Below are positions 19,892 to 61,018 of a DNA stretch of 64,000 nt, one piece after another. The notes under the pieces are model-generated. The model ran no database searches. It was not told the DNA's origin and was given only the letters and a program-made list of their open reading frames with translations. This DNA comes from Ostreococcus lucimarinus (lineage: Eukaryota): NCBI GenBank assembly GCA_000092065.1, contig CP000594.1. One strand, written 5' to 3'. Made by a program: the position numbers and the translations under genes. The stretch's first letter is position 1; each line of letters begins with the position of its first letter.

Positions 19892-20344
19892 TCAAGACGA
19901 TTCTTCGTCGTCGCAACGCTGGAACTCGAGCTTCATCTTTCGAGGCGCGGGCCACGTAGAGATAGCCGCCATAACGACGTCGAACGACTCTCCACGAGTG
20001 GAAAATCTGATTTGCTCTTCGCCTTTTTTAACGCTCACTCCGCCGTAGTCCATTTCGCTGTTGAACACGATCGCCGACGTAGCGATTAATCTATCACCCA
20101 CGCTAATCAGGCCGCTCTGCTCGGCCGCACCGCCGGGCACGAGTTCTTCGACAAAAATATTTCCATTTTTATCGTTCGCCAGAAACATGCCGAGCGGTTT
20201 CTTCAGTTCCACCGCGTATCTCGCGCATCCCGGGGGAACCGGTTCGTCGTCCGCCGCCGCCGCGCGGCGGCGGGTGAGCCGACGCCGAGACGGTCCCGCG
20301 CGCGGCGTCGCGACGGCGCAACGAATGGCAGCACTCGTTGTCAT
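19892..20344 (-). CDS. Small PDZ-domain protein with a chloroplast-transit-like N-terminus.
   Basis: ATG at 20344. N-terminus MTTSAAIRCAVATPRAGPSRRRLTRRRAAAA is S/T/A/R-rich. PDZ-like core: YAVELKKPLGMFLANDKNGNIFVEELVPGGAAEQSGLISVGDRLIATSAIVF. Confidence 0.6.
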   Translation of the reverse strand: MTTSAAIRCAVATPRAGPSRRRLTRRRAAAADDEPVPPGCARYAVELKKPLGMFLANDKNGNIFVEELVPGGAAEQSGLISVGDRLIATSAIVFNSEMDYGGVSVKKGEEQIRFSTRGESFDVVMAAISTWPAPRKMKLEFQRCDDEESS

Positions 20345-31980: not shown

Positions 31981-32270
31981 CCCGCGCGCGCGATCTGCTT
32001 TTTCGTCCACGCGGCGTCCACTCGCGAACGCGCGGATACCGTTCGCTCTCTCAGCGCCCTCCACGTCCGATCGGTTCGGAAGTGACGCGCGCGCGCAGAA
32101 TAGTTTCGCGTCACAACGCAATTATTCATTCCCGTGTTGATTTTATTCTATTCCAGGGGGTATGGGTATAGAGTTTACAGTGCCTTCGTACGAGATATTT
32201 CCCAACACCCTTTAGTACCAAAACCTAATTGCGTATCTTCCCTCACTTTCCGACGTCACGCGCGCACGCG

Positions 32271-35200
32271 ATGACGTCGGCGACGCCGAAACGACGGCGC
32301 GCGCGCAGATTTTTGTATGCGTTCGGAGGACCGACACTCTTATTTAACCTCATGCGCGTGTTTGCCATGTCCGGGCTCGTGGCAACAATTACAATGTCAA
32401 CAGCCGCGGGCGCCGCCCACGGTGGAGGTGCGAGCATGGACGAGGGACCGGCGCAAATGCATTATATGCCTGATCGATTTCGCAGCCTCGCGGGCGGCGG
32501 CTGGCTTACTATCTCATCGAGAGACGTGCACAAGAGCCTGATGCCCATGCCTGGGATGCGCGGTGGCGGGGAAGGCGCGAATGAGTCAGCAGTAAGTGGC
32601 AGCGCGATGAAGGACGAGGTGAAGATCGATCTGGCCCACGGTGACCCAGACGGTGAGCGATCGTGCGATCTCGTGCATTACAAGTCATCCTCGAATGAGT
32701 TGGTGTGTTCACCACGTGCGGTGGATTGCTGTTTGGACGGACTCACGGCGCAGGAGCTCGCCAGCGTAAGCGATGGGTGCCCGTCGGTGAGACCAGAGCT
32801 GAACGTCGAGGTCAACGGTCAGCGATTGACGTGGGGCAGCGCTGGTAGAAATGGAAGGGACACGCTCACGGACGAAAGTCTCAAAGTGAGCCATGGGCAG
32901 ACGCCGACGATCGTGGCGGTCGAGCCGGCTGAGGTTCGTCCCGGTGAGTTGATCACGGTGTACGGACGAACGTGCTTTGGCGATGTTTGGAAGAAAGATG
33001 AAGATGATGGTTCGTCTCTACGTGATGATCCCGACGCACTGCGAGATCTATTCTCGGTTGAAGCGAGCGCAAGAGAGGATCCGCGCCAAGAAATTGGATT
33101 GGAAAAGTCTCTCTACAAGGTGCTCATCGGTGACCTACCGTGCGAGGTTCGAGATCCACTCACAAACAGGTACTACCGATCCGAGCGCGGCGATGGTCCA
33201 TACACAGCCCACCGGCAAACAGAGTGTGGACCCGTTAACGGTTGGTTTCAGTGCCGTGTACCCCAAGACATCGATTCCGGTCTTCATCTACTTCATTACG
33301 AGACGTACACCAGAGGCAATGCTGTGATCCTGTCTGAGGCGCTCAGATGGAATGCATCGGACGCGTCCAAGGGCTACGTGCTGTCAGTGGTTGATGATAA
33401 GTCGGAAGATGAAGATCCACCGCGTGTTTATAACATAACGCAGCTCTCGAAGGATGAGTCCAAACAGCGACTCCTTGTTGAGGGTGCGTCTCTTGATGCG
33501 CCAAATATCGTCGTCGAGCTTGACGGGGAGCGCTGTGGTGGAAAAAAGGTTGTGTCCAGATCTGGCATCGAGGTTGAATGCTCAGGTTCAGCTGGAGCGA
33601 GCTCGCAGTATCACTACGGCCCCCCCGCGTGGCTGCGTGAAGACTGGGTGTTCAAGGACAAGAATAATAAGTTTGTCGGTGGCAAAGCGTGGTCTAACGC
33701 TCTCCACGTTTTGAAGCAGCGTGGAGAAAGGTACAACCCTCTCGCCGACGAAGTCATGGACGCTTTAAGCTCGGCATTGGCAACGAATGGCATTGTCCGC
33801 GGGTACAAGATCGAGAAAGTTCAACAGTATCTCACGAGCCCATCGGTTGGATCACCATATGTTGAGGCAACTAGCGGCATGAAAGCGGCGCACGCCGGAC
33901 TCATCCGTCACCGAAGGATACGGAATGCTGTGTTTGAACGTGTAAGCGGAGTCATCACCGCCAAAGCAAACGGGCGAATGCGCGTGGCGATCGCCAATGC
34001 GGCGGGCAATAACATGGTGCTTCGTGTGCGACATGTTTCCGACAACTTAAATGTATTCAAACCTTGGTTGTTAGTTTCCAAATTTTGCGGCACCAGATAC
34101 AGCAGACAAAACATTTATCGATACGGCTTTTCACAGTGGTTCAGTGTTCGTGGTAACGAAAAATACTATATGGAATTTCTGATGAACTTGGACCCCAGAT
34201 ACTTGCACAATTTCGGGGGATTCGATGTTAAGATGGAATTTTCCTACGACGCGGGTAATCCTGCGGGATCAATTGGGCAACTTACGCACACGACAACGCC
34301 TCACGTGCCCAAACGAGCGCATGGTGGCGATTACGTCGTGCGCTTTAGCGGCGCTTCGAAAACTGCGATCAGATTCGCTCATAATGCAACTTCTTCAAGA
34401 AGCAATTTTGAGTGGAAACTCTTCAGTGGCGGCAAGACCATCGAGTTCAATACGAAGAATTGGTTGCATGCACGCGAACACGTGCGGAAAGTTAGAGACG
34501 CTCTGCGATGGGCTAACTGTACCGCGCTGCCTGAAGACTCAAAGATGTGGGACGCGGACTCGACCCATTCTTCGCACCCATTCGACGTCGAGAATCGATG
34601 GCTCATGGTGCGTGATACGCAGACCTTCAAAGAGCCCACCACAGATTGGAACTTCATATGGCAACGTCGCATGGGCGGATTCAGAGGCGCGTCGATCGAC
34701 TGGAGTACCTCGTACTGTTCGACACACAGTCAAAAATTTGATTTGTCGTCACTACCCCCAGGAAGAGTCATCACTCCTTCTTCTCATTTCGACGTACCTG
34801 CATCTTCTCGTGCGACGACGAATAAGTTTCTGAACTTTGCCTACAAAGTCACTCCGGGTACGCGAGCGACCTTGTTACTTCGTCTAAAGTACCGAAGCGG
34901 TAATCGGGACATATCGACCACGTGCGCGGTTCTCCTCACCCATGAACAAGCGACTGGGAACGTGAAGAACTTCGATCACCCAGCGTGTGTGGACCTTCGA
35001 AGCGTCTTCAAGGATGATGGAGAGTGGCACTTTATTTCATTCGATTGGCGAACTGCGTTGGCCGGTGGTGAGTATGCCCCGAGTTATTTGGGCGAGGCTA
35101 TGTTCCCGCATAAAGTGCAAGTTCAACTCGATGGTATCGGTGTCGGCGCGCAGAGATTCCTCGGCAAGTGTCCGAATAAACAGCGCTTAGCGGAAATGTA

Positions 35201-38200
35201 TGTCGGTGATGAAGGAAGTGAACTGCGCGGTTACCTCTGGTTGGATAGCGTTTCTGTGACACAGGAACGCTACTCTCCTCAACGAGTCGAGACGCCCTCT
35301 GCACAGCTCGGAGGTATGCAAGAAGGCGTTCACGCAATCACAGATATTGAATATTCGGTCATCAGCCGAAGCGATGGCTCTAAGTGCAAATCGCTGTCGG
35401 ACTGTGATATCATCGTGAGCCTGCGTCAGGTGAAGAGATGCATTGATGCGCAGTCGCGAGGCGATTTCAATATTTCGCCGATGGTGATGTCACAGACGAG
35501 TCCAAACCCGCAACCCGCGACGGTCTCGTGTGGTCGTCACTATGCAGCGAACTGCTCGACTTGTCCGTGGAAGGTGTCCGCGGAAGGTGTCCGTGGAAGG
35601 TGGATGGGCTGGAAATATTGCAATGGTGCGTGCGAATGGAGATGGCACGGGCGTATCAATGCAGGTGGCACGTGCGTGTCAAAGCCAGCTCCAACTCCTC
35701 CGGCAATAACAGTCACGGATCGTACTTCTTCAACACGTGGAACCGTCACTGCACAGATCACAGGGGGGACGATGACGCAATTTTCCACCTCTGCCAATTC
35801 ATCTGAAGTGCAGGACGCATTACGTCATGTCCTCGGAGCGCACGACGGAGGCTTCGTGGTGAGTCCAAGCATGGATTTGTTTGATGCGTGCGGTGTGAGC
35901 GCTCATCGCATGCGCGTTGCGCATGCGAGCGATCTCGAATCGATCCAAGCGCGGTACAAAGAAGTCGTCAATGGTGTGCCCCTGGGAATGCTACCGAAAT
36001 CTTCCCGAGGCCGCACTGCGGAAAATGACGCAGGTCTCCTTAATATAACTGTGAATGTCTCAGGCGGCCTCGCTGAGATAGTCGCGACAGACGAGTCGAG
36101 CGATTTCATCGGTATGGTGCCCCTGGACACGAGAACAGATCTCGATGTGCGCGCCTTGATTCGCGGTGGCGACGCCGTGTTGGCGACGGCTGTTGTGACG
36201 GATGGCGACACAGTCGTACCATGTTCTGTCTCACCTGACCGTATGTCTGCGACTGGCTTCAAACAAGTTCCGAACGGGCAGGCATTCGTTGGCGATGCTT
36301 CTTGCCACATCATTGTGCCACACGAGGAAGTTGCATCTGACGCGACCGTGCACGCTCCGACGGAGTTGAATCAGGATGGTTTTCCCTCACTCGGTGAGTC
36401 CGTGAGTCAATCGAGTCCGACAGACCAGAAACGTCGACGGGACGTCGAAACTATCCGTCGGCGCAGCATGTCAAACTCGCTAAAATTTCCTGGCCATGAT
36501 ACCTGGGCAAAACGAGATCTATCGATGAGTAGATCCGATCTTGGACGATTAACAGTCACAGTGGTTGGTTTTGGTGCGCGTGTGCACAACGGCGCCGCGC
36601 ACCGTAGAGCTGCGAATCACGCGCGGAAACTGTTGAAAACGGAACTCGTCGCGAAGGATGCAGGTCAGGGGAGTCTCAACAATACGAAAAGCAAGTATGA
36701 ATTTCCGGCGGGCGCGGGTCGATTCAGTGATCCATCGACGTGGGGTCCTCGGGGAGTGCCGGACCAAAACTCGACGGATATGCTCTTTATTCCTGCCGGT
36801 TTCAATCTTACTCTGGATGTCGCCGATACGTACTTCCGCGTGTGGGTGATTGAGGGGCACCTAAATTTCCAACGGGGCATGAACATCACGATGCAAGCAG
36901 AAATGATCGTCATCAACGGCGACGACGCACACTTTAGCATTGGGAGTGAAACACGTCCCTTTGAAGATCAGGCGAATATCATCATGCACGGTCACTGGCG
37001 ATCCCTCGGCTTGCCCAAATATGGGGTGAAGTGCATCTCACTGACGAGCGGACGATTAACATTCTATGGTCAGCACGTCACGCCTTGGATGGAACTGGCC
37101 ACTACGGCTTCAGCTAACGCAAACGTTATTTCCGTCAGAAGCAAGGAAGGCAAGACTCCAGATCTCGCCGGATGGAAACCGGGTGCGAGTATTGTGGTGA
37201 CGTCAACCTCTTACGGGGACAGGAGATGTCGGCAAAACCGTACAGACGACTGTCAACCCGAGGAGCGCGTTATTGAATCTGTCACTCCTAGAGGCAACTT
37301 TGCGGACATAACTCTCGATCGACCGTTGAAGTATGAACATTTGGGTGAATCCGTGAATGTGGCGGGAAGCCCCCGCGGGGCTACGATTGAGCGTCGTGCT
37401 GAAGTAATGCTTCTCACGAGAAATATCAACGTGCGCGGCACGACTGAACACAATGGGTATAAGCTCGTCGGCTTTGGCGCGCACACTATGATGATGTCTG
37501 GTCAAATGGTGTTGAAAAATGTTGAATTCGGCCCAAACGTCGGACAGGCCTTCCAACTGGGTCGGTATGCCATCCACTACCACACGCCCAATGAAAAGAT
37601 GTTCAAATATGGTTTGACAGCCTCAAATGACCCGAGGATGCAGGGCGCAGACCAGCGCTTGAGTCGTGTGGAGGGAGTCTCGGTCCACCAATCAAACAAC
37701 CGTGCGATCGCGGTGCATGGTTGTTATCGACTGAACATCATTAACAACGTCGCGTACAACATCTTGGGACATGGGATGTTCGTTGAAGATGGTGTGGAAA
37801 TGTGGAACCTCTTCAAGGACAACGTTGTTTCTCTAGTGCATCGCTCTTTCTCTCTTTTGAACACTGATCAAACACCTGCAGCGTTTTGGATATCGAACGC
37901 TAACAATTTCTTCATCGGTAATCGAGTGTCATCGAGTAATCATCATGGATATTGGTTTGACCCACCAGGAGGACCTACCGGACCGTCGTCGCGAACGCTC
38001 ACGGGGCCTTTGGAAATCCAAAAATTAAGCACTCGGAAGGTACCGCTCGGCCAGTTTGAAAATAACAGAGCCCACTCGAATGGCCACTCCGGACTTTGGA
38101 TTGATCAAATAAACACGGTCTTGCAGCAAGGCGGCAGGCTCAGAATGTACATGGTCGGTACCCACGTATGGAACAATGGAATCAACGGTTTCGGAATGAT

Positions 38201-41200
38201 TACCGGCGTTGGGCATCTACAGATTGTGAATACGTTTGCCATGGGCAACGGGATTGACATCATGTATATCAAGTCGACTGGTGCGACGTGGGCGATGCCG
38301 ACGAATGGTTGGTCCGGTAACTTGGTGTACAACGCCACCCTTCGCGGTGACCCGAAACGCAATACCCAGGCAATCGGCTGTCCGCACGGCGGATGGGTAA
38401 CATTTAACGATATCCTCATTAGTGGCTATCAAAGTAGGTTGCCCCCAATACACCACTGCGCTGTGTGTCCGGGTTTCAAAGGCGGCATGGAAGTTCGTTT
38501 CATGAATATGAAATTCGTCGACAGTGATACAAGGCGGCTCCGCGGTGGTTCAACATCTCGACCGCGCGTATTCTGGAACGGGTACAACTCCAACCTTTTG
38601 CTCGACGTGGATGGGACCCTGAGTGGATCGCCAGGTCCACGATGGGCGCATTCAGTCAAGGGCGCCAGTGATGATCCCAGGAACCGGCCGACGGGTCATT
38701 TTCCGCCAGAACACTGCACCCTCAATGATCACATCGGAGGTGTTGTTTGCGACGCCAACACTGTGTCGTTGCGAGAGGTGCAGTGGCGCCGTATCAAGCC
38801 CATGACCCTTATACCCATGGCGATGCAGACAGCACCTGATCAAAATGCAGGGCAAGTGAACTTTTATCATTACGACCATATCGAGCGACGTTTCAATTGG
38901 CGTACGACATTGGTTATGGTTAAAAGTCCGAACGCGAAGCCATACATCCATAACTTTACGTTTAAGTTTAAAACATGGCAAATTGATGACCCGGACGCTT
39001 GGTACATGGAGGTCCGTGAGCTTCAGCCCAATGAATGGGCTATAATGCGATTCCCCACACTCCGCAATCCGTGGCGTTGGAACTTGAATTCAAGAATACC
39101 GACGGTCACATTGAATAACTACAATCAAAGTGATTATAGTTTCAATGAGAGCAAGGCCATCACCACCACGAGCAACGAATGGCTGAGTTGGAAAAATCAC
39201 AAGTTCGGCGACCACACATACCTACCCGTTGTGGAGACAAGGGATGTTAATGTAAAGCCAGATCCAGGGCTGCTCGATATCATGATATCTGGCAAGCGCG
39301 AACAAGGATGGACACAATCGTACGCCCTCGGTGCCAACTATGATGGCGCGCGTGAAGATATGCCCGTCTGCACCACTTCATGCGGAAGCTCGGCAAAGTC
39401 AACATGTGGCATGAAACGCTACAACTGCAGACCGGGCGACAAGAAACGATGTTTGCCGATGGAAAAGCCTGCAAACTGCTTCGACAATCGACCTATACCC
39501 GAGGTAGATCCCGAGCCTAAAACTTTTTCCTGGTGCGACTCAAACGAAGTTTGGTCTCCGCCGGCATTCGGGGATGACGTCATGATCAAGGCTGGTTGGA
39601 CGGTCATCTTAGATGAAACCTGTCTGGTGACCAACATAACTAGACACGTGGATTTATATGGGTCCCTGTTGCTTCGTGATCCAGGCGCTGGTAAAACCAT
39701 CAAGTTCCGAGCGCAGACCATCCACGTCGCGGCTGGGATTGGATACCTCGAAGCTGGTGACCAGGATGATCCGATATCGAATGGCGACGTTCGTATCGAG
39801 CTTTATGGGAACAGATTTTCTAACGCTCGAATGGGCTACGGTATGGAGACAAAGTACATCGCCGTTCTCGGACACCTCAGCCTCGTCGGAAAGGCGAGCG
39901 TGGAGCAAACGTGGTCGACGCTTAGAAGCGATGCGCCCGCGGGAAGCAGTACAATTGAAACGACAGCCTGTGGCGGTTGGAATACTGGCGACACGCTCAT
40001 GATTGGTGGCGCTATGCACAATTGGACCGGGATCAAGCATGCTTGGTTTTTGAGCGCGGAGCGCTGTGATATTTCCTCCATAGCAGTTGCGAGCGAAGGT
40101 TGCGTCATACGGTGTACTTCCAGCTTCAACTACACGCACTCAGGCCCGGCCCAAAAGCACGAGGTCAGTTTTGGTGGAATGCCAGTGACTCTCATGCATA
40201 GGCGCTCTCCAGGTGGGCGCGTGCAGGTAGTTGGCATGGAAGACAAAAACAAGGCACTGGCAGAGCAGCACTATGGTGCTGTTATTACTATCCTGAAACC
40301 GAAAAAGAAAGGCTATGACGCAAAATTGGCTAAGAGATTCAAGATAGAACTCAAGACGCCCGAGCGCATGCAAGCGGCAACTGAAAGCATGAAACATGAT
40401 CCCCCGCCTGAATGCCACCGCAGACAAGGTTCGGCTGTGATCGTCAATGTCAACTTTGCGCATTGCGGTCAGCGGCACTCTAGTCGCGCGTGTGTTTCTT
40501 TTGCCGCCGGTATTGGCGCTGAGTATCGAGCTACGTTCGCAGAAACGACATCGATGGCACTCGTTGCGAACAACACATTTGCGGACGCCTACAATTTTGC
40601 CGTGAGCGCAGCAGGAGATGGAATTATTATAGAGAATAACGCCATCGCACAAACCTATCACGGTGGATTCGAGGTCTCTGGTGCGAACAACACAATGTCT
40701 AATAACGCAGCTGTTCGATTATTCGACGATGTTAGTGATTACTTTCACGACATTGGGTCGGTTGGTTTCAAGTTGTCGGGATCAGGGAAATGGTATACTA
40801 ACGTCGTCGCCTCCGTGCAGTACACTGGGTTTAAAATTCCTGGATATCCGTGCGAAATGATGACTCCAGACGTGGAGGATGAGGGTTTAGACGTTCGCGC
40901 TGTGACCACCGTTCCCGCCGAACCTACAATGCGTGACCTTCGCGCGTATGGTGGCATGGTAGGCGTGAATCTGCGGGGCGGGCGTACTCGGATGGTCACA
41001 CGTGAACCGGTGGAGGCCTACGCGCCGCTCGAGTGTCGCCAATGGAGCGACTTCGAGATTCGTTCAATGGTTTGGTACGGCGTAACCACGTTTGGTCAGG
41101 GAAAAACGTCTATTGTGTTGAAAAACTTTAATATTTGGGACACCGGACTTGGTTTCGCGCTGTGGATGGTCAACGGTGGCTCAGCCGCAGGTTCGAGCAG

Positions 41201-42095
41201 CGAGCGAGGGCATTTCGCAGAAATCAGTGACACGACGATAATCGGTTCTGCAAGTCGATGTAGAAACGACGGCATTGGGTTTCCCGCGTTTTACTTAACG
41301 GCAGAACCGTACCGGCCGGATCAAGGAGTGAAAACGCCATCGCGCTTTGGTGGAACGACGCTAAGAAACATAAGGTTTCGCGATTTCGGCGCATGTGAAA
41401 AGAAAGGCGTTCGTCAAGTTCGTCAAAAGAATTACGCATTGGTGAACGCCATGAACCGTGGGCGATACGCGTGGGTTTACTACGACAACGCGAACCCCGT
41501 GCGATCTTCTGGCTTGAGCTTTAAGGGTGTACCATTCGAAAACAGGTTACTCATGATCCATCCAAGCTGGGGTCGAATAGGCAATGGGAAATGGGGCTGT
41601 GCCCAAATGTACTGCGACGGACATCGCAACACGTTTGTGATGGATGAGGACGGTTCGCTGCTCGGTGATAACGCCGCATTCGGGACCATCTTGCCCGAAA
41701 ACGAGATTGGTTGGTTCAAGAAACTGGCCTATATCGATCCGCTCAGCCGTGACATTCTTGAAGATTTGGTTCCATTCACACACCAGTGGCTGCCCAACGG
41801 TACCAAACTGACGCCCATGCGAGGGAAGCTCTACGACGAGCCAGGCCATCTCAAAATGGGCTGTCGAAAGGAGGCTTCATGGCAGGCGTGGCTCTGTCCC
41901 GAACACAGGCACAGGCAAATAATCCACGAAAGTTTGGACGGCGATCACACGAAGAGGCGCATCTCCCCAACTTCTGTTCTCACAGAGCTACCATCTCAGA
42001 GCAAGCGTTTCATGTCTCTGTACACTGGGCCTGCGAAATACGGAGGAAACTCCTCGACCGAGGGCAATAACATCCAAGCGCTCGATCGAGGCTAG
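32271..42095 (+). CDS. Giant PKHD1/fibrocystin-TMEM2/CEMIP-like cell-surface protein, about 3274 aa, single exon. N-terminal signal anchor, IPT/TIG domains, two G8 domains and two blocks of PbH1 parallel-beta-helix repeats.
   Basis: IPT/TIG-like segments (~32895-33330 and 33420-33600). G8 domain 1 at ~36700-37080 (W-G-P-RGVP...PFEDQANIIMHG...YGVKCISLTSGRLTFYG) and G8 domain 2 at ~39520-39900 (FSWCDSNEVWSPPAFGDDVMIKAGWTVILDE...). PbH1-like repeats at ~37440-38350 and ~40500-41300 (NNVAYNILGHGMFVEDG..., NNTFADAYNFAVSAAGDGIIIENNAIAQTYHGGFEVSGANNTMSNNAAV). First ATG at 32271. The listed start at 32229 is TTG. Confidence 0.75.
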   Translation: MTSATPKRRRARRFLYAFGGPTLLFNLMRVFAMSGLVATITMSTAAGAAHGGGASMDEGPAQMHYMPDRFRSLAGGGWLTISSRDVHKSLMPMPGMRGGGEGANESAVSGSAMKDEVKIDLAHGDPDGERSCDLVHYKSSSNELVCSPRAVDCCLDGLTAQELASVSDGCPSVRPELNVEVNGQRLTWGSAGRNGRDTLTDESLKVSHGQTPTIVAVEPAEVRPGELITVYGRTCFGDVWKKDEDDGSSLRDDPDALRDLFSVEASAREDPRQEIGLEKSLYKVLIGDLPCEVRDPLTNRYYRSERGDGPYTAHRQTECGPVNGWFQCRVPQDIDSGLHLLHYETYTRGNAVILSEALRWNASDASKGYVLSVVDDKSEDEDPPRVYNITQLSKDESKQRLLVEGASLDAPNIVVELDGERCGGKKVVSRSGIEVECSGSAGASSQYHYGPPAWLREDWVFKDKNNKFVGGKAWSNALHVLKQRGERYNPLADEVMDALSSALATNGIVRGYKIEKVQQYLTSPSVGSPYVEATSGMKAAHAGLIRHRRIRNAVFERVSGVITAKANGRMRVAIANAAGNNMVLRVRHVSDNLNVFKPWLLVSKFCGTRYSRQNIYRYGFSQWFSVRGNEKYYMEFLMNLDPRYLHNFGGFDVKMEFSYDAGNPAGSIGQLTHTTTPHVPKRAHGGDYVVRFSGASKTAIRFAHNATSSRSNFEWKLFSGGKTIEFNTKNWLHAREHVRKVRDALRWANCTALPEDSKMWDADSTHSSHPFDVENRWLMVRDTQTFKEPTTDWNFIWQRRMGGFRGASIDWSTSYCSTHSQKFDLSSLPPGRVITPSSHFDVPASSRATTNKFLNFAYKVTPGTRATLLLRLKYRSGNRDISTTCAVLLTHEQATGNVKNFDHPACVDLRSVFKDDGEWHFISFDWRTALAGGEYAPSYLGEAMFPHKVQVQLDGIGVGAQRFLGKCPNKQRLAEMYVGDEGSELRGYLWLDSVSVTQERYSPQRVETPSAQLGGMQEGVHAITDIEYSVISRSDGSKCKSLSDCDIIVSLRQVKRCIDAQSRGDFNISPMVMSQTSPNPQPATVSCGRHYAANCSTCPWKVSAEGVRGRWMGWKYCNGACEWRWHGRINAGGTCVSKPAPTPPAITVTDRTSSTRGTVTAQITGGTMTQFSTSANSSEVQDALRHVLGAHDGGFVVSPSMDLFDACGVSAHRMRVAHASDLESIQARYKEVVNGVPLGMLPKSSRGRTAENDAGLLNITVNVSGGLAEIVATDESSDFIGMVPLDTRTDLDVRALIRGGDAVLATAVVTDGDTVVPCSVSPDRMSATGFKQVPNGQAFVGDASCHIIVPHEEVASDATVHAPTELNQDGFPSLGESVSQSSPTDQKRRRDVETIRRRSMSNSLKFPGHDTWAKRDLSMSRSDLGRLTVTVVGFGARVHNGAAHRRAANHARKLLKTELVAKDAGQGSLNNTKSKYEFPAGAGRFSDPSTWGPRGVPDQNSTDMLFIPAGFNLTLDVADTYFRVWVIEGHLNFQRGMNITMQAEMIVINGDDAHFSIGSETRPFEDQANIIMHGHWRSLGLPKYGVKCISLTSGRLTFYGQHVTPWMELATTASANANVISVRSKEGKTPDLAGWKPGASIVVTSTSYGDRRCRQNRTDDCQPEERVIESVTPRGNFADITLDRPLKYEHLGESVNVAGSPRGATIERRAEVMLLTRNINVRGTTEHNGYKLVGFGAHTMMMSGQMVLKNVEFGPNVGQAFQLGRYAIHYHTPNEKMFKYGLTASNDPRMQGADQRLSRVEGVSVHQSNNRAIAVHGCYRLNIINNVAYNILGHGMFVEDGVEMWNLFKDNVVSLVHRSFSLLNTDQTPAAFWISNANNFFIGNRVSSSNHHGYWFDPPGGPTGPSSRTLTGPLEIQKLSTRKVPLGQFENNRAHSNGHSGLWIDQINTVLQQGGRLRMYMVGTHVWNNGINGFGMITGVGHLQIVNTFAMGNGIDIMYIKSTGATWAMPTNGWSGNLVYNATLRGDPKRNTQAIGCPHGGWVTFNDILISGYQSRLPPIHHCAVCPGFKGGMEVRFMNMKFVDSDTRRLRGGSTSRPRVFWNGYNSNLLLDVDGTLSGSPGPRWAHSVKGASDDPRNRPTGHFPPEHCTLNDHIGGVVCDANTVSLREVQWRRIKPMTLIPMAMQTAPDQNAGQVNFYHYDHIERRFNWRTTLVMVKSPNAKPYIHNFTFKFKTWQIDDPDAWYMEVRELQPNEWAIMRFPTLRNPWRWNLNSRIPTVTLNNYNQSDYSFNESKAITTTSNEWLSWKNHKFGDHTYLPVVETRDVNVKPDPGLLDIMISGKREQGWTQSYALGANYDGAREDMPVCTTSCGSSAKSTCGMKRYNCRPGDKKRCLPMEKPANCFDNRPIPEVDPEPKTFSWCDSNEVWSPPAFGDDVMIKAGWTVILDETCLVTNITRHVDLYGSLLLRDPGAGKTIKFRAQTIHVAAGIGYLEAGDQDDPISNGDVRIELYGNRFSNARMGYGMETKYIAVLGHLSLVGKASVEQTWSTLRSDAPAGSSTIETTACGGWNTGDTLMIGGAMHNWTGIKHAWFLSAERCDISSIAVASEGCVIRCTSSFNYTHSGPAQKHEVSFGGMPVTLMHRRSPGGRVQVVGMEDKNKALAEQHYGAVITILKPKKKGYDAKLAKRFKIELKTPERMQAATESMKHDPPPECHRRQGSAVIVNVNFAHCGQRHSSRACVSFAAGIGAEYRATFAETTSMALVANNTFADAYNFAVSAAGDGIIIENNAIAQTYHGGFEVSGANNTMSNNAAVRLFDDVSDYFHDIGSVGFKLSGSGKWYTNVVASVQYTGFKIPGYPCEMMTPDVEDEGLDVRAVTTVPAEPTMRDLRAYGGMVGVNLRGGRTRMVTREPVEAYAPLECRQWSDFEIRSMVWYGVTTFGQGKTSIVLKNFNIWDTGLGFALWMVNGGSAAGSSSERGHFAEISDTTIIGSASRCRNDGIGFPAFYLTAEPYRPDQGVKTPSRFGGTTLRNIRFRDFGACEKKGVRQVRQKNYALVNAMNRGRYAWVYYDNANPVRSSGLSFKGVPFENRLLMIHPSWGRIGNGKWGCAQMYCDGHRNTFVMDEDGSLLGDNAAFGTILPENEIGWFKKLAYIDPLSRDILEDLVPFTHQWLPNGTKLTPMRGKLYDEPGHLKMGCRKEASWQAWLCPEHRHRQIIHESLDGDHTKRRISPTSVLTELPSQSKRFMSLYTGPAKYGGNSSTEGNNIQALDRG

Positions 42096-45918: not shown

Positions 45919-46608
45919 CCCTCGTCACCGGGCGCCGCACACGATTCCCGCGCGCTCGCGCGTCCGCGGGACTCGCGAGACCTCGCGACGGGCGCGAACG
46001 ATGCTCTCGCGCTCGTTCCACGCGCTCTTCCGGCGATCGCGGCGTGCGCGTGCGTCGACGCGCGCGCGTGTGCGCCCGGGCGCGACGCGACGGCGAAGCG
46101 CGAAAACGCCCTCGCGCGCGTCGCGACGCCCAGCTTCGCGAAACCGAAACGTCCGAACCTTTAAGCGCCGTCATCGCAATCTACTCGAAGCACGATCAGT
46201 GTCGCGAACCACACCATCGATCGAACGCGCGACGAGCACCGCTTCGCGAAACATGAAACCGATCGACCCACCGTCAGGTTCACGAACCTGCAAGCCCCGA
46301 ACCCGCGCGCGGGTTCGATTCGACATCAACGAACCTCGCGCGGTTCAGCGAACCTTCGATCGGGTGACAAAAATAGCATCCCGAATGATGCGCGCCATCG
46401 TGGATCGCGGAATGGATGTCCGATCGAAAAAATACGACCGCGATCCCACGGATGCGTGGGTGTGCGAACATCGATATCGATATCATCGATGACCGGGGTT
46501 TCGATCGTTTCGTCGCCCCGTCCGCGATCGCGCGCGCGGGCCCGGTCGCGCGCGCGATTGCGATTACAAGGGGCCTCCCGACGCGTCGCATCGCGACGCG
46601 CGCACGCC

Positions 46609-47959
46609 ATGGCCCTCTCTCTCGCGCAGGTCGCGCCCGCGGCGCAGGTGCGTCGCGTCTCGCACCGTCGCGCGCGTCGCGCGCGTCTCTCGGCGTCGCG
46701 AACGCGCGCGCGTCGTCGCGAACGGCGGCATCGCTCGGCATCGGATAGGATGGCCATCGGCGCGTCGTCGCGGGTCGACGCGCGACCGGGACGCGACGAC
46801 GCGCGACGTCGACGGAGGGCGAGAGAAAAATCGACGACCGCGGACGCGCGGGTGACTGACGAGAGGTTTCGCGGCGCAGTTTTCTTCGCGTAAGCGCGTC
46901 TGCGGCGCGCCGGCGGCGGCGTCCCGGACGCGCGTCGTCGTCCCGCGGGCTCGAGCGGTCGCGGCGCGCGCGAGCGGAGAGAAGAAGTCGGTGTTGATCG
47001 TGAACACGAATGGTGGCGGACACGCGAACATCGGGTTCTGGCTGGCGAAGACGCTGGCGGGGGCTGGGCACGACGTGACGATGAACGTCGTCGGCGCCGA
47101 GGACGATAAGAAGATGGCCAAGACTCCGTTCTCGTTGTTCGATGAGATTCGAGGGATGGGTGTGAAGACGGTGTGGGCGAACCCCGATGAAGTGGCGTCC
47201 AAGCATGCCGGGGCGAAGTTCGACGTGGTCGTCGATAACAACGGTAAGGACATGGACACCGTTGGTCCGGTGGCGGATTTCGCCGTCGCCGCGGGGGCGT
47301 CGCAGTTCTTGTTCGTCTCGAGCGCGGGTATCTACAAGCCCACGCCGTGCCCGCCGCACGTCGAGGGCGATGCCGTGAAGGAGACGAGCGGCCACGCCGT
47401 CGTCGAGGCGCACTTGAAGACGTTGCCGTTGAAGATGAGCTCTTTCCGCCCGCAATACTTGACGGGATACGGATCGAACAAGGACTGCGAGGAGTGGTTC
47501 TTCGATCGCGCCGTGCGCGGCCGACCGATCTTGGTCCCGGGCTCGGGTGATCAGCTCTCGTCGGTGACGCACGCCGAAGATTTGGCCACCATGATCGCCG
47601 CCGCCGTCGGCAACGACGCCGCCGCTGGGGAAATCTTCAACTGCGTGACGACGAAAGCCGTCACGCTGAACGGCATGGCGGAACTTTGCGCCAAGGCTGC
47701 GGGCGTCGAACCGAACGTGATCAACTACGACCCGAAGGATGTCCCGGATGTCGAAGTTAAGAAGGCGTTCCCGTTCCGCCCGATCCACTTCTACAGCTCC
47801 AGCGCCAAGGCGCAAGCCGTGCTCGGCTGGTCGCCCAAGCACCCGGATTTGGCCGCCGAGCTCAAGGAACGCTTCGCGTACTACAAGTCCATCGGACGCG
47901 ATAAGAAGGAGATGTCGTTCGAAACCGACGACAAAATTCTCGCCGCGATCGGCAAGTAA
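46609..47959 (+). CDS. CSP41: CSP41-type chloroplast stem-loop-binding protein (NAD-dependent epimerase/dehydratase fold). Two exons: 46609-46647 and 46880-47959, with a 232-nt GC-rich intron at 46648-46879.
   Basis: The mature part (KKSVLIVNTNGGGHANIGFWLAKTLAGAGHDV...) has no in-frame ATG. The listed start at 46991 is GTG. A transit-peptide-like ATG exon (MALSLAQVAPAAQ) lies upstream in another frame. Donor CAG|GTGCGT at 46648. Branch-like ACTGAC 22 nt before the acceptor GCGCAG| at 46879. Splicing restores a continuous ~50-aa R/A/S-rich transit peptide. Confidence 0.6.
46648..46879 (+). other. Predicted spliceosomal intron of the CSP41 gene (232 nt, GTGCGT...CTGAC...CAG).
   Basis: See the CSP41 CDS entry. 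The frame change from 1 to 2 is exactly compensated. Confidence 0.5.
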
Positions 47960-48043
47960 ATAGCGAGCTTGATTTTATATTAAACGAACATATTGAACGT
48001 GCAACGCGAGCTAAAACGTACAGTACACGGATCGGCGACGTCG

Positions 48044-49222
48044 TCATCGGTTTGGAACTTGGGAGAAACCACCTAGAAAGTTGAGCGCCAAATTCTTCGC
48101 CGAGTCCGCCGTCAGGGATTGTATTTCACGATCCAAGTGCGCGCGATGCGTCGCCCGCGGACTGGCGTAGGCGTAACTCGCGTGTCGAAGCGTGACCTCG
48201 ACCCCTCGCGTCAACGACTCGTACGCCTCGCCGAGATCGGAATCTTTGAACCTTTCTAACTCATCCATATCACCGTCGATGATGTGCCAATGCTCGCCCG
48301 GACGCGCGGTGGTGGCGATGAGATTCGCCGCGGCGAGCGAGCGCGAGGCAAAGTTTTCGGTCGGGATCACGCAGACCCCGTAACCGTCGACGTCTTCGGC
48401 GACTTCGAAACCGTTTTCTCTAAATATTTCGCGGCACCTCTCCACCGCGCGTCCGCGCGAATTCAAGACGAACACCTTGCTCCCGCGCGCCAGCGCGGCG
48501 TGCAAGAGCGGTTTCAGGTCCTCGTACACGACCTGCTCGCCCGCGCTCGTCCCCGGCTCGCCGTCCGCCGTCGTCTCCATCCGACGCGCGTCCACCGACG
48601 CTTGCAAACCCGCCGGCATCATCCGTCGCCCGTCCCACCCGACGCTCGACTCCACCTCCTCCCCCCACTTCAACACGCTCATCAACTTTATCTCCGGCCA
48701 GCTCGACACGATCTCGTCCACCGTCAACGGCCTCGTTCTTCGCTCGAACCGCTGCTCGTTTGAAAACACCGGCCCCGGCCGCCCGCCGCTCGTCGTCCGC
48801 CCGCCGATGATCGCCTCGTCCGCGATCACCCGCACCATCACCACCGCCTCGCACGACGTCGACTCCGCGATCGCTCGTCGCATCGTTCGCATCGCCTCGA
48901 CGTACGACGACGCGTCTCCCGGGACGTGCTCCGGCCAGCGCTCGCGCGCCACCGCGTGGCTCACCCTCGTCATCTCCACCGTCGCGTCCACGACGGCGTC
49001 GTACGCGAACAGCACGACGTCGCGCGACCGCTCGATGGCGTCGTCGTCGCTCGCGTCGCTCGCGTCCGCCGCGCGTCGCGCGACGCGTCGGCGTCGCGCC
49101 GACGCCGACGCCGATGTCCCGCTCGATCGCGTCGCGCGGTCGCGCGCGCCTCGCGCGGTCGCGGTCGCGCGCGCGCGCGGCTCCGGACGCGCGCGCGACG
49201 CGTCGATCGCCCGCGCGTCCAT
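48044..49222 (-). CDS. Hypothetical organelle-targeted protein, weakly HAD-hydrolase-like, about 392 aa.
   Basis: ATG at 49222 (MDARAIDASRARPEP..., a transit-peptide-like run). Core with protein-like composition (VVLFAYDAVVDATVEM ... KVFVLNSRGRAVERCREIFRENGFEV ... HIIDGDMDEL). The upstream part of the listed ORF (to 50206) is GC-rich antisense of the neighbouring gene. Confidence 0.4.
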   Translation of the reverse strand: MDARAIDASRARPEPRARATATARGARDRATRSSGTSASASARRRRVARRAADASDASDDDAIERSRDVVLFAYDAVVDATVEMTRVSHAVARERWPEHVPGDASSYVEAMRTMRRAIAESTSCEAVVMVRVIADEAIIGGRTTSGGRPGPVFSNEQRFERRTRPLTVDEIVSSWPEIKLMSVLKWGEEVESSVGWDGRRMMPAGLQASVDARRMETTADGEPGTSAGEQVVYEDLKPLLHAALARGSKVFVLNSRGRAVERCREIFRENGFEVAEDVDGYGVCVIPTENFASRSLAAANLIATTARPGEHWHIIDGDMDELERFKDSDLGEAYESLTRGVEVTLRHASYAYASPRATHRAHLDREIQSLTADSAKNLALNFLGGFSQVPNR

Positions 49223-50994: not shown

Positions 50995-51735
50995 CTACGC
51001 CGAGAACAACTCCTCCAAAGTCATGTCCCGCATCTTGGCCACTTCCTTGAACGTTCGCATCTCGTTCAACCCCGCAACGACCGCCCGCGCATTATTCAAC
51101 GGGTTCGAGCTTCCGAGCTGTTTCGCGAAGCAATTCTTATAGCCCGCCAGCTCCAAAACCGTGCGGCACGCGCCCCCCGCGATGACCCCCGTCCCCGGGC
51201 TCGCCGGGCGCAGCATCACCACCGCGCCGCCCTTCCCCTTCACCGTCACTCGATGCGGGAACGTGTCCCCTTTAGTTATCGGCGCTCGCTTCGCGCTCTT
51301 TCGCGCATCGCTCGCCGCCTTCGTCACCGCGATTTGCACCTCCTTCGCCTTCTGGCACCCGACGCCAACCAAACCCTTGCCGTCGCCCACGACCACGGTG
51401 GCGCGGAAGCTCATCTGCGACCCGCCCTTGGTGATTTTCGTGACGCGCGACACCTGGACGACGGACTCTTGCATCCCGTCGTCCTCCTTGCCGCCGCGAC
51501 CGCGGCCTCGGCCGCCGCGACCACCGCGTCCGCCGCCGCGCCCGCCGCGCGCGCGCGGGGTCTCGGACTCGCCTTCGACTGCCGACGCGTCTGCGTCGTC
51601 GCCGGCGCGCGCGACCGTCGCCGTGCGCCGCGGGGCGACGGCGACAATTTTATCGCATCGGTTCGCGCGGCTCGGGAGGCGCGCGGACGCCGCGCGAGAC
51701 GCGGGCGCGGCGGTGAGGGCGATGGAGGCCATCAT
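50995..51735 (-). CDS. RPS5: Plastid 30S ribosomal protein S5 (uS5c), nuclear-encoded with a transit peptide.
   Basis: Gly-Arg-rich linker, then [62 protein letters not shown]...[34 protein letters not shown], a canonical S5 double-psi fold sequence. ATG at 51735. Confidence 0.85.
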
Positions 51736-56089: not shown

Positions 56090-56171
56090 CGCATTCGGCA
56101 GGATTTGAACCTACGCACGGAGACCGTATTCGATTTCTAGTCGAACCCCTTAACCACTCGGGCACGAATGC
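56090..56171 (-). tRNA. tRNA-Ser(AGA), type II with a long variable arm.
   Basis: Minus-strand GCATTCGTGCCCGAGTGGTTAAGGGGTTCGACTAGAAATCGAATACGGTCTCCGTGCGTAGGTTCAAATCCTGCCGAATGCG. Acceptor stem 7 bp perfect. Anticodon loop CUAGAAA. Close to animal tRNA-Ser-AGA. Confidence 0.9.
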
Positions 56172-56977
56172 TCGTCGCGGACGCCGCGCGCTTCGACACA
56201 TGGTCAAATCACACATTAAATACGTCGCACACACACCTAAAAAAACATAAACTTCAATCTCAGACCCCCGACGCGATCGCGCGACGCGTGTTACAGGTTT
56301 TTCCCGATCCCCCTCGATCGCGCGCCGACGTCACGCGATCGCGTCGCCGCGCGGTCGATCGATCGCCGATCGCCGTCGTCGAACCTCGCCGCGTCGATCG
56401 ATGATCACGCGCGGACGATGCGGTGAGGTTCGACGCCCGCGCGGGCGCGTCGATCGCGAATATTCTCGAGACGTCGGGCCGCCGCGCGCACTTTACTTTA
56501 CGTCGCGTGGTCGAACGACACACAGCAGGTGCGCGAGCGATGCGAGCGCGCGTGACCGAGACGCGCGCGCGCGGGAAATATTCCGCCGCGCGTTCGCGCG
56601 CGCGGAGGCGCGGCGCGGCGCGGGATCGGGGCGAACGGACGCGCGATGGGACGCGCGCGCGATGATGATCCGTCCGCGGCGGCGGGTTATCTTGACGCGT
56701 GGCGTCGCGCGCGACGCGAATATGTCGGGGCTCGCGCGGTAATACCGCGCGGGAAATCGCGTGCGTCGATCCTGCGCGTCCGTGGGGGATGTCGCGGCGC
56801 GATCGCGCGGTGGGATGGGAAGATGTTGAAGATCTTGGATTTTTGGGACGAGGCGCGGGTGACGGCGCGCGGCGGCGCGGACGTCGAGGCGAAACGAACG
56901 AACCGGAAGACTGACGACGGCGAACGCGCTGAAAACGAGCAGTAAACCGCACATCAACACACTCCACAGACATAAAT

Positions 56978-58141
56978 ATGGGATTTCTTTTCACTTCCGA
57001 ATCCGTGAACGAGGGTCACCCGGATAAGCTCGCGGATCAAATCTCCGACGGCATCTTGGATGCGTGCCTCGCGCAAGATCCGGATTCCAAGGTTGCGTGC
57101 GAGACCGCGACGAAGACCAACATGGTGATGGTTTTCGGTGAAATCACGACCAAGGCCAAGGTTGACTACGAAGCCGTCGTGCGCCAAGTGTGCCGCGACG
57201 TCGGTTTCATCTCTGATGAAACCGGCTTGGACGGTAACAAGTGCCGCGTGCTCGTCGAGTTGCACGACCAATCCCCGGACATTGGTCAAGGTGTGCACGG
57301 TATGGGCACCAAGTCCGATGAAGACATCGGTGCGGGTGACCAAGGTCACATGTTTGGCTACGCCACGGATGAAACTCCGGAACTCATGCCGTTGACGCAC
57401 GTTTTGGCCACCAAGCTCGGTCACCGCCTCACCGTCGTCCGCAAGGATGGTACGTGCCCGTGGGTGCTCCCGGATGGTAAGACGCAAGTCACCATCGAGT
57501 ACGAAAACGAAGGCGGCGCCATGGTGCCGAAGCGCGTGCACACCATCTTGATCTCCACCCAACACATCGAGGGCGTGACGAACGAGAAGATCGCCGAGGA
57601 TCTCATGAACGAAGTCATCAAGAAGGTTGTCCCGGAAAAGTACTTGGACGCCGACACCATCTTCCACTTGAACCCGTCTGGACGTTTCGTCATCGGTGGC
57701 CCGCACGGTGACGCCGGTTTGACCGGTCGTAAGATTATCATCGACACCTACGGTGGCTGGGGCGCGCACGGCGGTGGCGCCTTCTCCGGTAAGGACCCGA
57801 CCAAGGTCGACCGCTCTGGCGCGTACATCTCCCGCCAAGCGGCCAAGTCCGTCGTCGCCGCGGGTCTCGCGCGCCGATGCTTGTTCCAAATCTCCTACGC
57901 CATCGGCGTCGCCGAGCCGTTGTCCGTGCACGTCGACACCTACGGCACCGGTAAGATTCCGGATTCCGAAATCCTCGCCAAGGTCAAGGCCGCGTTCGAT
58001 TTCCGTCCGGGCATGATGGGCAAGGCGCTCGACCTCAAGCGCGGCGGTAACAAGCGTTACCAAACCACCGCCGCCTACGGTCACTTCGGCCGCGATGAAG
58101 ACCTCGACATCTTCACCTGGGAAAAGGTCGTCCCGCTCTAA
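56978..58141 (+). CDS. MAT: S-adenosylmethionine synthetase (methionine adenosyltransferase).
   Basis: [31 protein letters not shown]...GEITTKA...[12 protein letters not shown]..., a full-length canonical MAT. ATG at 56978. Confidence 0.95.
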
Positions 58142-58398
58142 GATAAAGTAACGAAGCCGTCGGCGCGGCGCGTCTCCTCGCGCGCGGCGTCGTCCCGACC
58201 CCGCGCGCGCGTCGTCCCCGCGCCGCACACGTTTGTCAAATTTTTAGACGGCGAGCATTTCGCTGTCCGACGGAACAGTCGGAATCATCACTAGACGAGT
58301 CGTAAGGATATTATTACGTTGTGAGGAGAGCCACCGTATAGAGCACTCGCGCCTTCGCGCATTCATGCATTCGCTCGCGTCACGCCGCGCCTCGGGCG

Positions 58399-59193
58399 AT
58401 GCCCGCGCGCGCGTCCGCGCCGCCTCGTCCCGCCGCGCGCGCGCGTCGCCCTCGCGCGCCGCGCCGCGCGTCGCGCGTCCCGCGCGCGTCCCCCCTCGAC
58501 CGCATCGATCCCGCCGCCGTCGTCGCCCGCCTCGCCGAGGCCGCGCTCGCCTCGCCGCTCGTCCTCAAGCGCTGCGACGACGTCCGCGTCGTCGTCGACG
58601 CCGACCTCGCGCGCGCGCTCGCGCTCGGCGAGCTCGGCGGCGCGCGCGTGCGCGGCCGCGGCTGGTCGAGCCCGCGCGACTTGACCGCGCGCGACGTCGA
58701 GCTCGTCGCGCGCGACGTCCGCGTCGACTGGAGCGCGGCGATGGCGATGCGAGGGGTGGTGCTCACGCGACCGGCGCGCGGCGAGGCGCGCCTGACGCTC
58801 GACGGGAGGGATTTCGAGAATTTCTTGAGGCACCCGCTGGCGAGACGCGCGGCGCGCGACGAAGCGTTCGAGTTCGAGCGAGGCGACGTCGCGAGCGACG
58901 ACGACGACGGGTACCTGGAGTGCGACGTGGTGATGCGAGACGGCGGCGCGCGGCGAACGGTGCGAATGCGACCGGGAGAGGGATCGACGGTTCGCGCGAC
59001 GTCGCGCGGCGACGGGGACGAGACGCTCGAGCGCGCGTTGGAGACGTTTTTCGAGCGACTCGTCCTCGATTTAGACGGCACGGAGCTGCGGTATCGCGAC
59101 ATGACGATCGACGCGCGCGCGACGGCGCCGACGGTGACGTTCGAGCTCGATCTGTGCGTCAAAAGGTTTCCGTCGCCCGGGATACGGTTTTAG
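58399..59193 (+). CDS. Hypothetical protein with an R/A-rich organelle-targeting-like N-terminus.
   Basis: ATG-initiated 264-aa ORF. The C-terminal two thirds have normal composition (DFENFLRHPLA...GYLECDVVMRDGGARRTVRMRPGEGSTVRATSRGDGDETLERALETFFERLVLDLDGTELRYRDMTIDA...). No family recognised. Confidence 0.35.
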   Translation: MPARASAPPRPAARARRPRAPRRASRVPRASPLDRIDPAAVVARLAEAALASPLVLKRCDDVRVVVDADLARALALGELGGARVRGRGWSSPRDLTARDVELVARDVRVDWSAAMAMRGVVLTRPARGEARLTLDGRDFENFLRHPLARRAARDEAFEFERGDVASDDDDGYLECDVVMRDGGARRTVRMRPGEGSTVRATSRGDGDETLERALETFFERLVLDLDGTELRYRDMTIDARATAPTVTFELDLCVKRFPSPGIRF

Positions 59194-59749
59194 CTCGCGT
59201 TCTCTCGCTCGCGCGCGAGACGCGCGCCTCTAATTCTAGCTCTACACATCTAGTTCGCGTTTTCCGGCGCCCGCGTTCGCCTCGACGCCTCCCTCGTCAC
59301 CGCCCGCATCGCGCTCGGCGGCCACAGCACCGCGGCGATCCGTCCTCGAAGCGCCCCCGTCGGCGTCTCGCCCGCGTCGCCGTCGTCTCGCGCGTCGCGT
59401 CCTCGCCATCCCGCGTCCGCTCGCAGCGCGCACGTCCCTCGCGAGGGCCCTCGCACGGCGTCGACGCGCTGAATCACGATGCCGTCGCCGTCGCGCGCGC
59501 GCACGGCGACGACGTCTCCCGCGTCGATCGCGCCGCGCGCGACGCTCGCGCGGTCGCACCACACCACCACCGCCTCGAACGCGTCGCGCGCGTCGCTCGA
59601 CGCGCTCGCGCGCCGCGCGAGCGCGCGCTCGGGCGCGCCGACGCGGTCGCCGACGACGGCGCCGAGCGCGAGCGCGAGCGCGCCGTCGCGCGCGACGCGC
59701 CGAAGCGTCATGCTCTGCCGCGCCGTCCCGGTCGCACTTCGCGACGCGC

Positions 59750-61018
59750 ATGCGCGACGCGCGGCGCCGCGCGCGCGCGCCGCGCGCGCGAATCGTCGCG
59801 GCGCTCGCGCTCGCGCTCGTCGCGGCGCGCGCGCGCGCGGGACGCGCGCGCGAGGCGACGGGACGCGCGAACGATGGCGACGACGTCGCGGCGCTGCGCG
59901 ACGCGCTGCCGAGCGACGGCGCGACGCTGAGCGAACTGTTCAGGTGGTCGATCGAGGCGGGACACCCGCGCGCGTCGAGCGACGCCGACGATCGGGCGCG
60001 CGGCGACGCGGGTCGGGCGGAGGGTTGGCGCGCGAGGGCGCGCGCGGCGCTCGCGCGAGCGACGGGACGACGCGACGACGGCGCGAGCGCGGTCGACGCG
60101 ATCGACGACGACGAGGGCGCGGAAGCGGAAGCGGGACGGTCGAAGACGGTGGATTCGATCGAGTCGAGGAAGAGGGAGGTGCGGGAGGCGCTGGACGCGA
60201 TGGCGGCGGCGCCGAGTCCGCACGCGCTCGCGCGAGAGTGCGGCGAAGTGGTGAGGGACGCGCGTAAGAATGAAACCAAGGCGCGAAGGGTGCGCGCGCT
60301 GGAGATTTTGTACGATTTGGTGGCGCCGATCGAGTTGGCGAACGATTTGGATAAGCTCGGGGTGGCGGAGGCGCTGATCGGGGCGCTGAGGGACGAGGAC
60401 GAGGACGTGGCGAGCGCGGCGGCGAGCGCGCTCGCGGCGGCGGCGTCGAATAACGTCGTCGTGCAGGGGATCATTCACGAGAGACGAGGGTTCGATGCGC
60501 TTTTAGAGCTCGTGTCGTCGCCCGCGACGCCCGCGGAGGTGCGTCATAAGTCGTTGTGGGTGCTCGGGATGTGCGCGCGGACGCACGAGGCGTCGCGCGC
60601 CGACTTTTTCGCCGCGGGCGGCGCCGGCGTGTTGGCTGATATTTTGTCTCCGAAAACGCCGGTCAAGACGCGCACGCGCGCGATGGTCTTATTCGGCGAC
60701 TTAGTTCTCATCGACGGCGTCGCGGACGCGATGTTTGCCGACGTAAAAGTCGCGAAATCCTTACTCGAGGACGTCGTCGCGAGCGCGCTCGACGCCGACG
60801 CCTCGCTCGACGCGCGCGAGAAAGCGATCGGCGCGCTTCTCGCCGCGCGCGAGCGCGGCCCTGAGATCGTGCGACATACGCTCGACGGATTCAAGCGCGA
60901 TCTCTCGACGCTCGCCGACGCGTTCGACGCCGCGGCAAAGGCGGAGGACGACGACTCCGCCGCCGACATCAGTCGTCTCGCGCGCGCGTTGAGCGTCTCG
61001 CCAAGGGTTGAATTGTAG
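59750..61018 (+). CDS. Fes1/HspBP1/Sil1-family armadillo-repeat Hsp70 nucleotide-exchange factor. Possibly ER-luminal and Sil1-like, given the signal-peptide-like N-terminus.
   Basis: N-terminal LSELFRWSIEAG resembles the Fes1 N-terminal WSI motif. ARM-like repeats (LEILYDLVAPIELANDLDKLG, ALIGALRDEDEDVASAAASALAAAASNN, ALLELVSSPATPAEVRHKSLWVLGMCA). Hydrophobic N-terminus IVAALALALVAARARA. ATG at 59750. Confidence 0.5.
   Translation: MRDARRRARAPRARIVAALALALVAARARAGRAREATGRANDGDDVAALRDALPSDGATLSELFRWSIEAGHPRASSDADDRARGDAGRAEGWRARARAALARATGRRDDGASAVDAIDDDEGAEAEAGRSKTVDSIESRKREVREALDAMAAAPSPHALARECGEVVRDARKNETKARRVRALEILYDLVAPIELANDLDKLGVAEALIGALRDEDEDVASAAASALAAAASNNVVVQGIIHERRGFDALLELVSSPATPAEVRHKSLWVLGMCARTHEASRADFFAAGGAGVLADILSPKTPVKTRTRAMVLFGDLVLIDGVADAMFADVKVAKSLLEDVVASALDADASLDAREKAIGALLAARERGPEIVRHTLDGFKRDLSTLADAFDAAAKAEDDDSAADISRLARALSVSPRVEL

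Follow-up and report, generated by a model that had tools for sequence, protein, structure and literature searches.

An ordinary, conserved, promoter-proximal intron follows a 13-codon first exon in the CSP41 gene of Ostreococcus lucimarinus

Features of the window

The window (the whole stretch of 64,000 nt that was analysed) is part of a 708,927-bp chromosome of Ostreococcus lucimarinus CCE9901. Besides the CSP41 gene that is the subject of this work (46609-47959, plus strand), it carries two giant uninterrupted ORFs, both on the plus strand. One of them (37-11901) encodes at least 3954 aa with Vps62 and VPS13_C domains and runs off the start of the window; the other (32229-42095) encodes 3288 aa with G8 and CEMIP beta-helix domains. 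These two giant genes have a GC content of only 47-52%. For the rest, non-coding DNA (introns and spacers) has 70-76% GC versus about 60-66% for coding DNA (e.g., 12001-13000, 18001-19000 and 58001-60000). A tRNA-Ser(AGA) gene is located on the minus strand (56090-56171). On the same strand, a GC-rich spacer contains a match to the C/D-box snoRNA snoR117 (21019-21098) that scores 43.4 bits, the gathering score being 42.

The ORF for SAM synthetase is identical to XP_001421225.1. Ahead of its coding sequence (56978-58141, plus strand) lies a GC-rich segment of 414 nt (56529-56942) that is likely to be a 5'-UTR intron of this gene. It reads cagcag/GTGCGCGA at its 5' border, includes GACTGACG (56909-56916), closes with GAGCAG and ends 35 nt before the ATG. 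Two prokaryote-style calls from a related lineage (P0146 and P0148) translate the branch motif as protein ('PETDDW...'). The minus strand also carries the gene of a 150-aa PDZ-domain protein (19892-20344) that is identical to XP_001421430.1. Just upstream of it (20345-20386), AGACTGACA, a T-rich tract and a CAG acceptor abutting the ATG look like the 3' end of a second 5'-UTR intron, for which there is one donor candidate (GTGCGCG at 20664).

Structure and product of the CSP41 gene

The coding sequence of CSP41 is carried by two exons on the plus strand. Coding exon 1 (46609-46647) consists of an ATG and 12 further codons, translated as MALSLAQVAPAAQ. Its start codon (46609-46611) has G at both -3 and +4, and the stretch just upstream (46562-46608) contains no ATG. 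Directly after codon 13, GTGCGTCG begins at 46648 and opens a spliceosomal GT-AG intron of 232 nt (46648-46879, phase 0, 73% GC), with GT at 46648-46649 and AG at 46878-46879. The 5' splice site GTGCGTC (46648-46654) matches the species consensus GTGCGTG at six of seven positions, and the branch-point motif GACTGACG (46854-46861), with ACTGAC at 46855-46860, is an exact match to the published extended motif. The presumed branch adenosine is 46859, 20 nt from the last intron base. The intron closes with GCGCAG at 46879; the 3' splice site CAG (46877-46879) is the first AG more than 6 nt downstream of this adenosine. From coding exon 2 (46880-47959, stop codon included) come the remainder of the presequence (FSSRKRVCGAP...ARASGEKKS) and the complete epimerase/SDR domain of CSP41a type.

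Exons 1 and 2 are read in different genomic frames, as 232 mod 3 is 1. In the main frame, a TGA (46853-46855) precedes the open stretch, and there is no in-frame ATG, GTG or TTG ahead of the GTG at 46991, which is the start given in the ORF list. The first in-frame ATG follows only at 47081, past the NTNGGGHANIGF nucleotide-binding motif. Read without splicing from the ATG at 46609, the message runs into a TAA (46891-46893) after 94 unrelated residues. Splicing is therefore obligatory, as the unspliced ATG frame ends early and there is no usable ATG before the nucleotide-binding motif. An earlier note on this DNA had proposed the same layout, i.e., a main ORF that lacks an ATG and is listed from a GTG, a 13-codon ATG exon in another frame and, between them, a GC-rich intron of 232 nt spelled GTGCGT...ACTGAC...GCGCAG, and each of these elements is present where it had placed them.

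Joining 46647 to 46880 gives a single ORF of 372 codons that is homologous throughout. The spliced protein matches Pfam PF01370 (epimerase/SDR domain, E = 1.2e-7), and its nearest named relatives are plant CSP41a proteins (55-60% identity, 87-99% coverage, E about 1e-117 to 1e-124). Judged by these matches, the gene product is a CSP41a-type epimerase/SDR. Fifty residues precede VLIVNTNGGG, which bears out the continuous N-terminal extension of about 50 aa that had been expected after splicing. These 50 residues include 14 Ala, 7 Arg, 6 Ser, 6 Val and a single acidic residue, a composition typical of green-algal presequences. The extension is a putative chloroplast transit peptide, and the protein is presumably imported into the chloroplast. 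A literature search on CSP41 in Ostreococcus returned nothing relevant.

The CSP41 intron is almost certainly a canonical U2-type intron in a nuclear gene for a chloroplast CSP41a-type protein. The minor class was considered and rejected: a U12-type intron needs the donor [AG]TATCCTT and the branch site TCCTTAAC, whereas GTGCGTCG and GACTGACG are found here. A structured or functional RNA inside the intron was likewise ruled out. A search of the intron against Rfam gave nothing at E <= 1, and its folding does not differ unusually from that of shuffled sequence (z = -0.47, compared with +0.57 for the intron of PsaH).

Transcript evidence for splicing

UniRef100_A0A7R9SZ60 ('Ostreococcus sp.'), already public, is identical at every residue to the 372-aa spliced product. 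Furthermore, four Logan run assemblies and one JGI data set provided five intron-less contigs of 1.1-1.8 kb (L006-L010). The exact 50-nt junction of exons 1 and 2 is present in every one of them, and neither intron border in any. Their source samples, environmental or other, are of the species to which CCE9901 belongs. The splice is thus the one that had been predicted, and these contigs show both the exon borders and the removal of the intron from RNA.

Adaptor sequence from cDNA synthesis is present in one of the five contigs (L009). The 5' end of L009 consists of a Nextera mosaic end followed by GTACATGGG, which we take to be the 3' end of the template-switching oligo used in Smart-seq chemistry; from CATCGCGACG onwards the contig is colinear with the window. 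After the adaptor, it reads CATCGCGACGCGCGCACGCC and then ATG. The combination of a Nextera end and a template-switch oligo end indicates that L009 is cDNA. It places an mRNA 5' end near 46589-46590, about 20 nt upstream of the CSP41 ATG, which gives a 5' UTR with a minimal extent of 46589-46608. The leader of L006 is colinear further upstream with a few mismatches, about 45 nt before the ATG and at least to about 46572. At their 3' ends, the contigs stop at 47979 (L008), 47999 (L009) and 48618 (L006), and the minimal extent of the 3' UTR is 47960-47999. Beyond CSP41, L006 and L007 extend into the 3' portion of the convergently oriented neighbour (47960-48618), which suggests overlapping convergent transcripts or assembly merging in a very compact genome.

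All five intron-less contigs have a synonymous C-to-T change (GCT) at 46614. The same variant is found in the metagenomic contigs L011, L013 and L014 (85-170 kb), which bear the intron and show 0-1 mismatch over 410 nt. More generally, the intron is kept in L011-L014 (72-170 kb), with 0-1 mismatch. Since the 46614 haplotype occurs together with the intron in L011, L013 and L014, contigs L006-L010 correspond to processed RNA and not to intron-less alleles.

Conservation of the intron in relatives

Conservation of the intron is shown by two further Ostreococcus lineages known from metagenomes. The CSP41 protein of the first one (L001) has 93% aa identity to that of the window and its gene is syntenic, with NAD kinase and cupin genes as neighbours; that of the second one (L005) has 89% aa identity. 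Both lineages have an ATG exon of 13 or 12 codons at the same spot as exon 1 of CSP41, followed by a GTACGC or GTACGT donor. Their introns (244 nt) have otherwise diverged, but CGACTGACG and the CAG acceptor are conserved, and this acceptor directly adjoins the conserved [FL][SA]SRKRVCGA. Furthermore, the annotated CSP41 gene of Bathycoccus prasinos (GCA_964199565.1) has a 281-nt phase-0 intron after codon 11. In the Micromonas pusilla model, the first CSP41 intron is located elsewhere, after about residue 32. The presence of the intron in three Ostreococcus lineages and in Bathycoccus implies that it is at least as old as the Bathycoccaceae.

Two further points, taken together, are possible but doubtful: that the GenBank/JGI annotation of CCE9901 lacks the correct exon 1 of CSP41, and that the mini-exon and its promoter-proximal intron have been kept throughout the history of the Bathycoccaceae. 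If the latter is true, they have been retained despite a strong pressure on these genomes to lose non-coding DNA. The intron might also have some effect on the expression of the gene.

Alternative explanations

Could the locus be expressed without any splicing, the long ORF alone being translated from a non-AUG codon (CTG 46856 or GTG 46991) or from the internal ATG at 47081? Prokaryote-style callers yield such a model (322, 319 and 292 aa) on hundreds of contigs, and L005 does have an in-frame ATG 21 nt upstream of the acceptor. However, this ATG is conserved neither in the window nor in L001, the cDNA contigs carry the spliced form with the upstream ATG as their first AUG, and the mini-exon is conserved as far as Bathycoccus. 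Moreover, a start at 47081 would lose the NTNGGGHANIGF motif and a start at 46991 the whole presequence. Hence, we give next to no credit to expression without splicing. It is also very improbable that the intron-less contigs are genomic DNA from strains that have lost the intron, or a processed retro-copy, and not mRNA. L006 and L007 do behave like genomic contigs in running past CSP41 into the convergent neighbour, but overlapping convergent transcripts are documented for O. lucimarinus, and the template-switch and Nextera sequences of L009 lie directly at a plausible transcription start. In L008, the leader is preceded by unrelated sequence, which is typical of chimeric transcript assembly. 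Furthermore, the intron-less contigs are all shorter than 2 kb, whereas the 322-aa call of the unspliced locus is found in 486 collection blocks, on contigs of up to about 337 kb. The four contigs with this call that were examined (L011-L014) keep the intron, three of them (L011, L013 and L014) together with the very SNP haplotype of the intron-less contigs.

Another alternative concerns the origin of the intron, which might be a recent mobile 'introner' like those of Micromonas, with the 10-nt repeat CGCGGCGCAG as target-site duplication. The direct repeat is real, one copy being at the end of exon 1 (46638-46647) and the other at the end of the intron (46870-46879), both on the plus strand, the exon 2 alignment reaches 10 nt into the intron, and a BLAST search of the intron against the window returns many weak matches in other GC-rich non-coding stretches. 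These matches are nevertheless short, 70-85% identical, on both strands and of CGCG-type low complexity, so that no element copies are involved. In the metagenome collection, a 30-mer taken from mid-intron hits nothing but the orthologous CSP41 locus (six contigs, one copy each, at the same offsets). Moreover, the intron is old, being common to three Ostreococcus lineages and, within one codon, to Bathycoccus. The CGCGGCGCAG repeat is absent from L001 and L005 and therefore probably arose by chance in CG-rich sequence. The BLAST search of the window and the 30-mer scan of the metagenomes rule out a mobile-element origin, whose probability we regard as negligible.

With an ordinary, spliced intron as the retained explanation, expression of the gene proceeds as follows. 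The transcript begins some 20-45 nt ahead of the start codon at 46609, and the first exon holds only this short leader and 13 codons. The spliceosome pairs with the strong, species-typical donor GTGCGTC and presumably with the branch site GACTGACG; it then uses as acceptor the first suitable AG, 20 nt beyond the presumed branch adenosine, and joins codon 13 (Q) to codon 14 (F). A 372-aa precursor results, the first 50 residues or so of which would serve as chloroplast presequence.

ORF-based gene calling and public annotation

The earlier note had also held that ORF-based calling misses the intron, and calls that lack exon 1 are indeed widespread in the public collection. The truncated 322-aa call that starts at GTG 46991 is present on 328 contigs and a 319-aa call on 228 contigs, while a Val-initial 322-aa version (P0124) is found on 130 contigs and versions of 292 and 294 aa on two and six contigs, respectively. 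The representative of the 90% cluster (P0001) has its start at an intronic TTG of the related lineage and includes the branch site in translation ('...RLT...'). Exact look-ups of six alternative CSP41 models returned prokaryote-style calls only, none of them from NCBI nr. The sources listed for the correct 372-aa protein are UniRef, JGI/IMG and Logan, and it is not flagged in NCBI nr. In the gene-position index, neither PsaH nor the ORF of the adjacent NAD kinase had an exact match.

An ENA metagenome protein of 318 aa (P0003) agrees fully with the CSP41 of the window up to ...DVEVKK and then continues with the C-terminus of a Micromonas-like homologue; it looks like a chimeric metagenome assembly. 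The ORF of plastid ribosomal protein uS5 (50995-51735, minus strand) encodes 246 aa with a presequence, and the reference protein in the same 90% cluster (XP_001421406.1) has 159 aa. Given this difference in length, the reference annotation seems to be N-terminally truncated there.

Bacterial-style callers applied to metagenome DNA of picoeukaryotes systematically remove the targeting peptides of CSP41-like genes. As regards biology, the CSP41 case is a further example of a conserved promoter-proximal intron with the strict splice signals of Ostreococcus, and it involves no new mechanism. Its main value is for quality control of annotation and of metagenome gene calling.

Splice signals and published consensus

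For O. lucimarinus introns outside chromosome 2, Irimia and Roy (2008, PLoS Genet 4:e1000148, PMC2483917) reported the atypical donor consensus GTGCGTG. Among the EST-confirmed introns of this class, they found ACTGAC in 87% and GACTGACG in 66.5%. The mean intron length of the species is 187-188 nt, to which the 232 nt of the CSP41 intron are close. The intron grammar that the earlier note had recognized in this genome is thus genuine and, as it matches this consensus, had already been published. The CSP41 intron is an ordinary, conserved, promoter-proximal intron that was already known in this sense, its splice signals having been described in 2008 and its spliced product being public.

Within the window, the motifs taken singly occur at about chance frequency: GACTGACG is not enriched (4 observed, 3.85 expected), and AGGTGCGT is found four times for 1.87 expected. 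Since such motifs are about as frequent as chance would have them in a GC-rich window, their counts are not proof, which comes instead from arrangement, frame, conservation and cDNA. A regular-expression scan for donor, branch site and acceptor over the window was too noisy for an intron tally; anchoring on ACTGAC yielded four credible introns at 5' ends. The same anchor pointed to the likely 5'-UTR introns of the SAM synthetase and PDZ genes.

A second instance of the same signals is provided by the intron of PsaH (61475-61834, minus strand; 360 nt, 76% GC, phase 2). It lies between exons at 61917-61835 (83 nt) and 61474-61165 in minus-strand reading. Splicing gives exactly the protein XP_001421408.1 (psaH of O. 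lucimarinus CCE9901), and the reference annotation includes the intron. The recurrence of the GTGCGT donor and of the CTGAC branch motif, which had been noticed there before, is confirmed by the order GTGCGTG, GACTGACG and CAG along 61834-61475.

Comparison with known introns and proteins

The CSP41 and PsaH introns are alike in their donor hexamer, in GACTGACG and in their high GC content (73% and 76%, respectively). Both are located in the presequence-coding 5' end of nuclear genes for chloroplast proteins. They differ in phase (0 versus 2 in PsaH), in length (232 versus 360 nt), in the distance from the branch adenosine to the 3' splice site (20 versus 31 nt) and in the size of exon 1 (39 versus 83 nt). 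As a class, the non-chromosome-2 introns of O. lucimarinus (Irimia and Roy 2008; Lanier et al. 2008, PLoS One 3:e2171) share with the CSP41 intron the GT-AG borders and GACTGACG near the 3' splice site. The CSP41 intron differs from this class solely in position 7 of the donor (C instead of G). Like other members, it sits in a gene for a chloroplast protein that is probably highly expressed.

The first CSP41 intron of Bathycoccus prasinos resembles that of Ostreococcus in being a phase-0 intron after a mini-exon, one codon away from the Ostreococcus position, and its donor is GTGCGC. Downstream of it, the motif [RF]FS.[KR][KR].C.G is common to the CSP41 proteins of both genera. However, the Bathycoccus intron is AT-rich (41% GC) and has no CTRAC motif near its 3' end.

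Plant CSP41a, i.e., chloroplast stem-loop binding protein of 41 kDa a, to which the algal protein is likened by its sequence, has the same epimerase/SDR fold and an N-terminal extension, with 55-60% identity over about 90% of the protein. Its precursor has about 400-410 aa, and the algal one is shorter (372 aa).

Finally, the introner elements of Micromonas (Simmons et al. 2015, MBE 32:2219) are, like the CSP41 intron, Mamiellales introns that ORF-based callers miss, and the short direct repeat that flanks the CSP41 intron in the window is a further likeness. Introners are nevertheless lineage-specific and repeated by the hundreds, whereas the CSP41 intron is single-copy in the window and in the metagenome collection and is conserved across genera.
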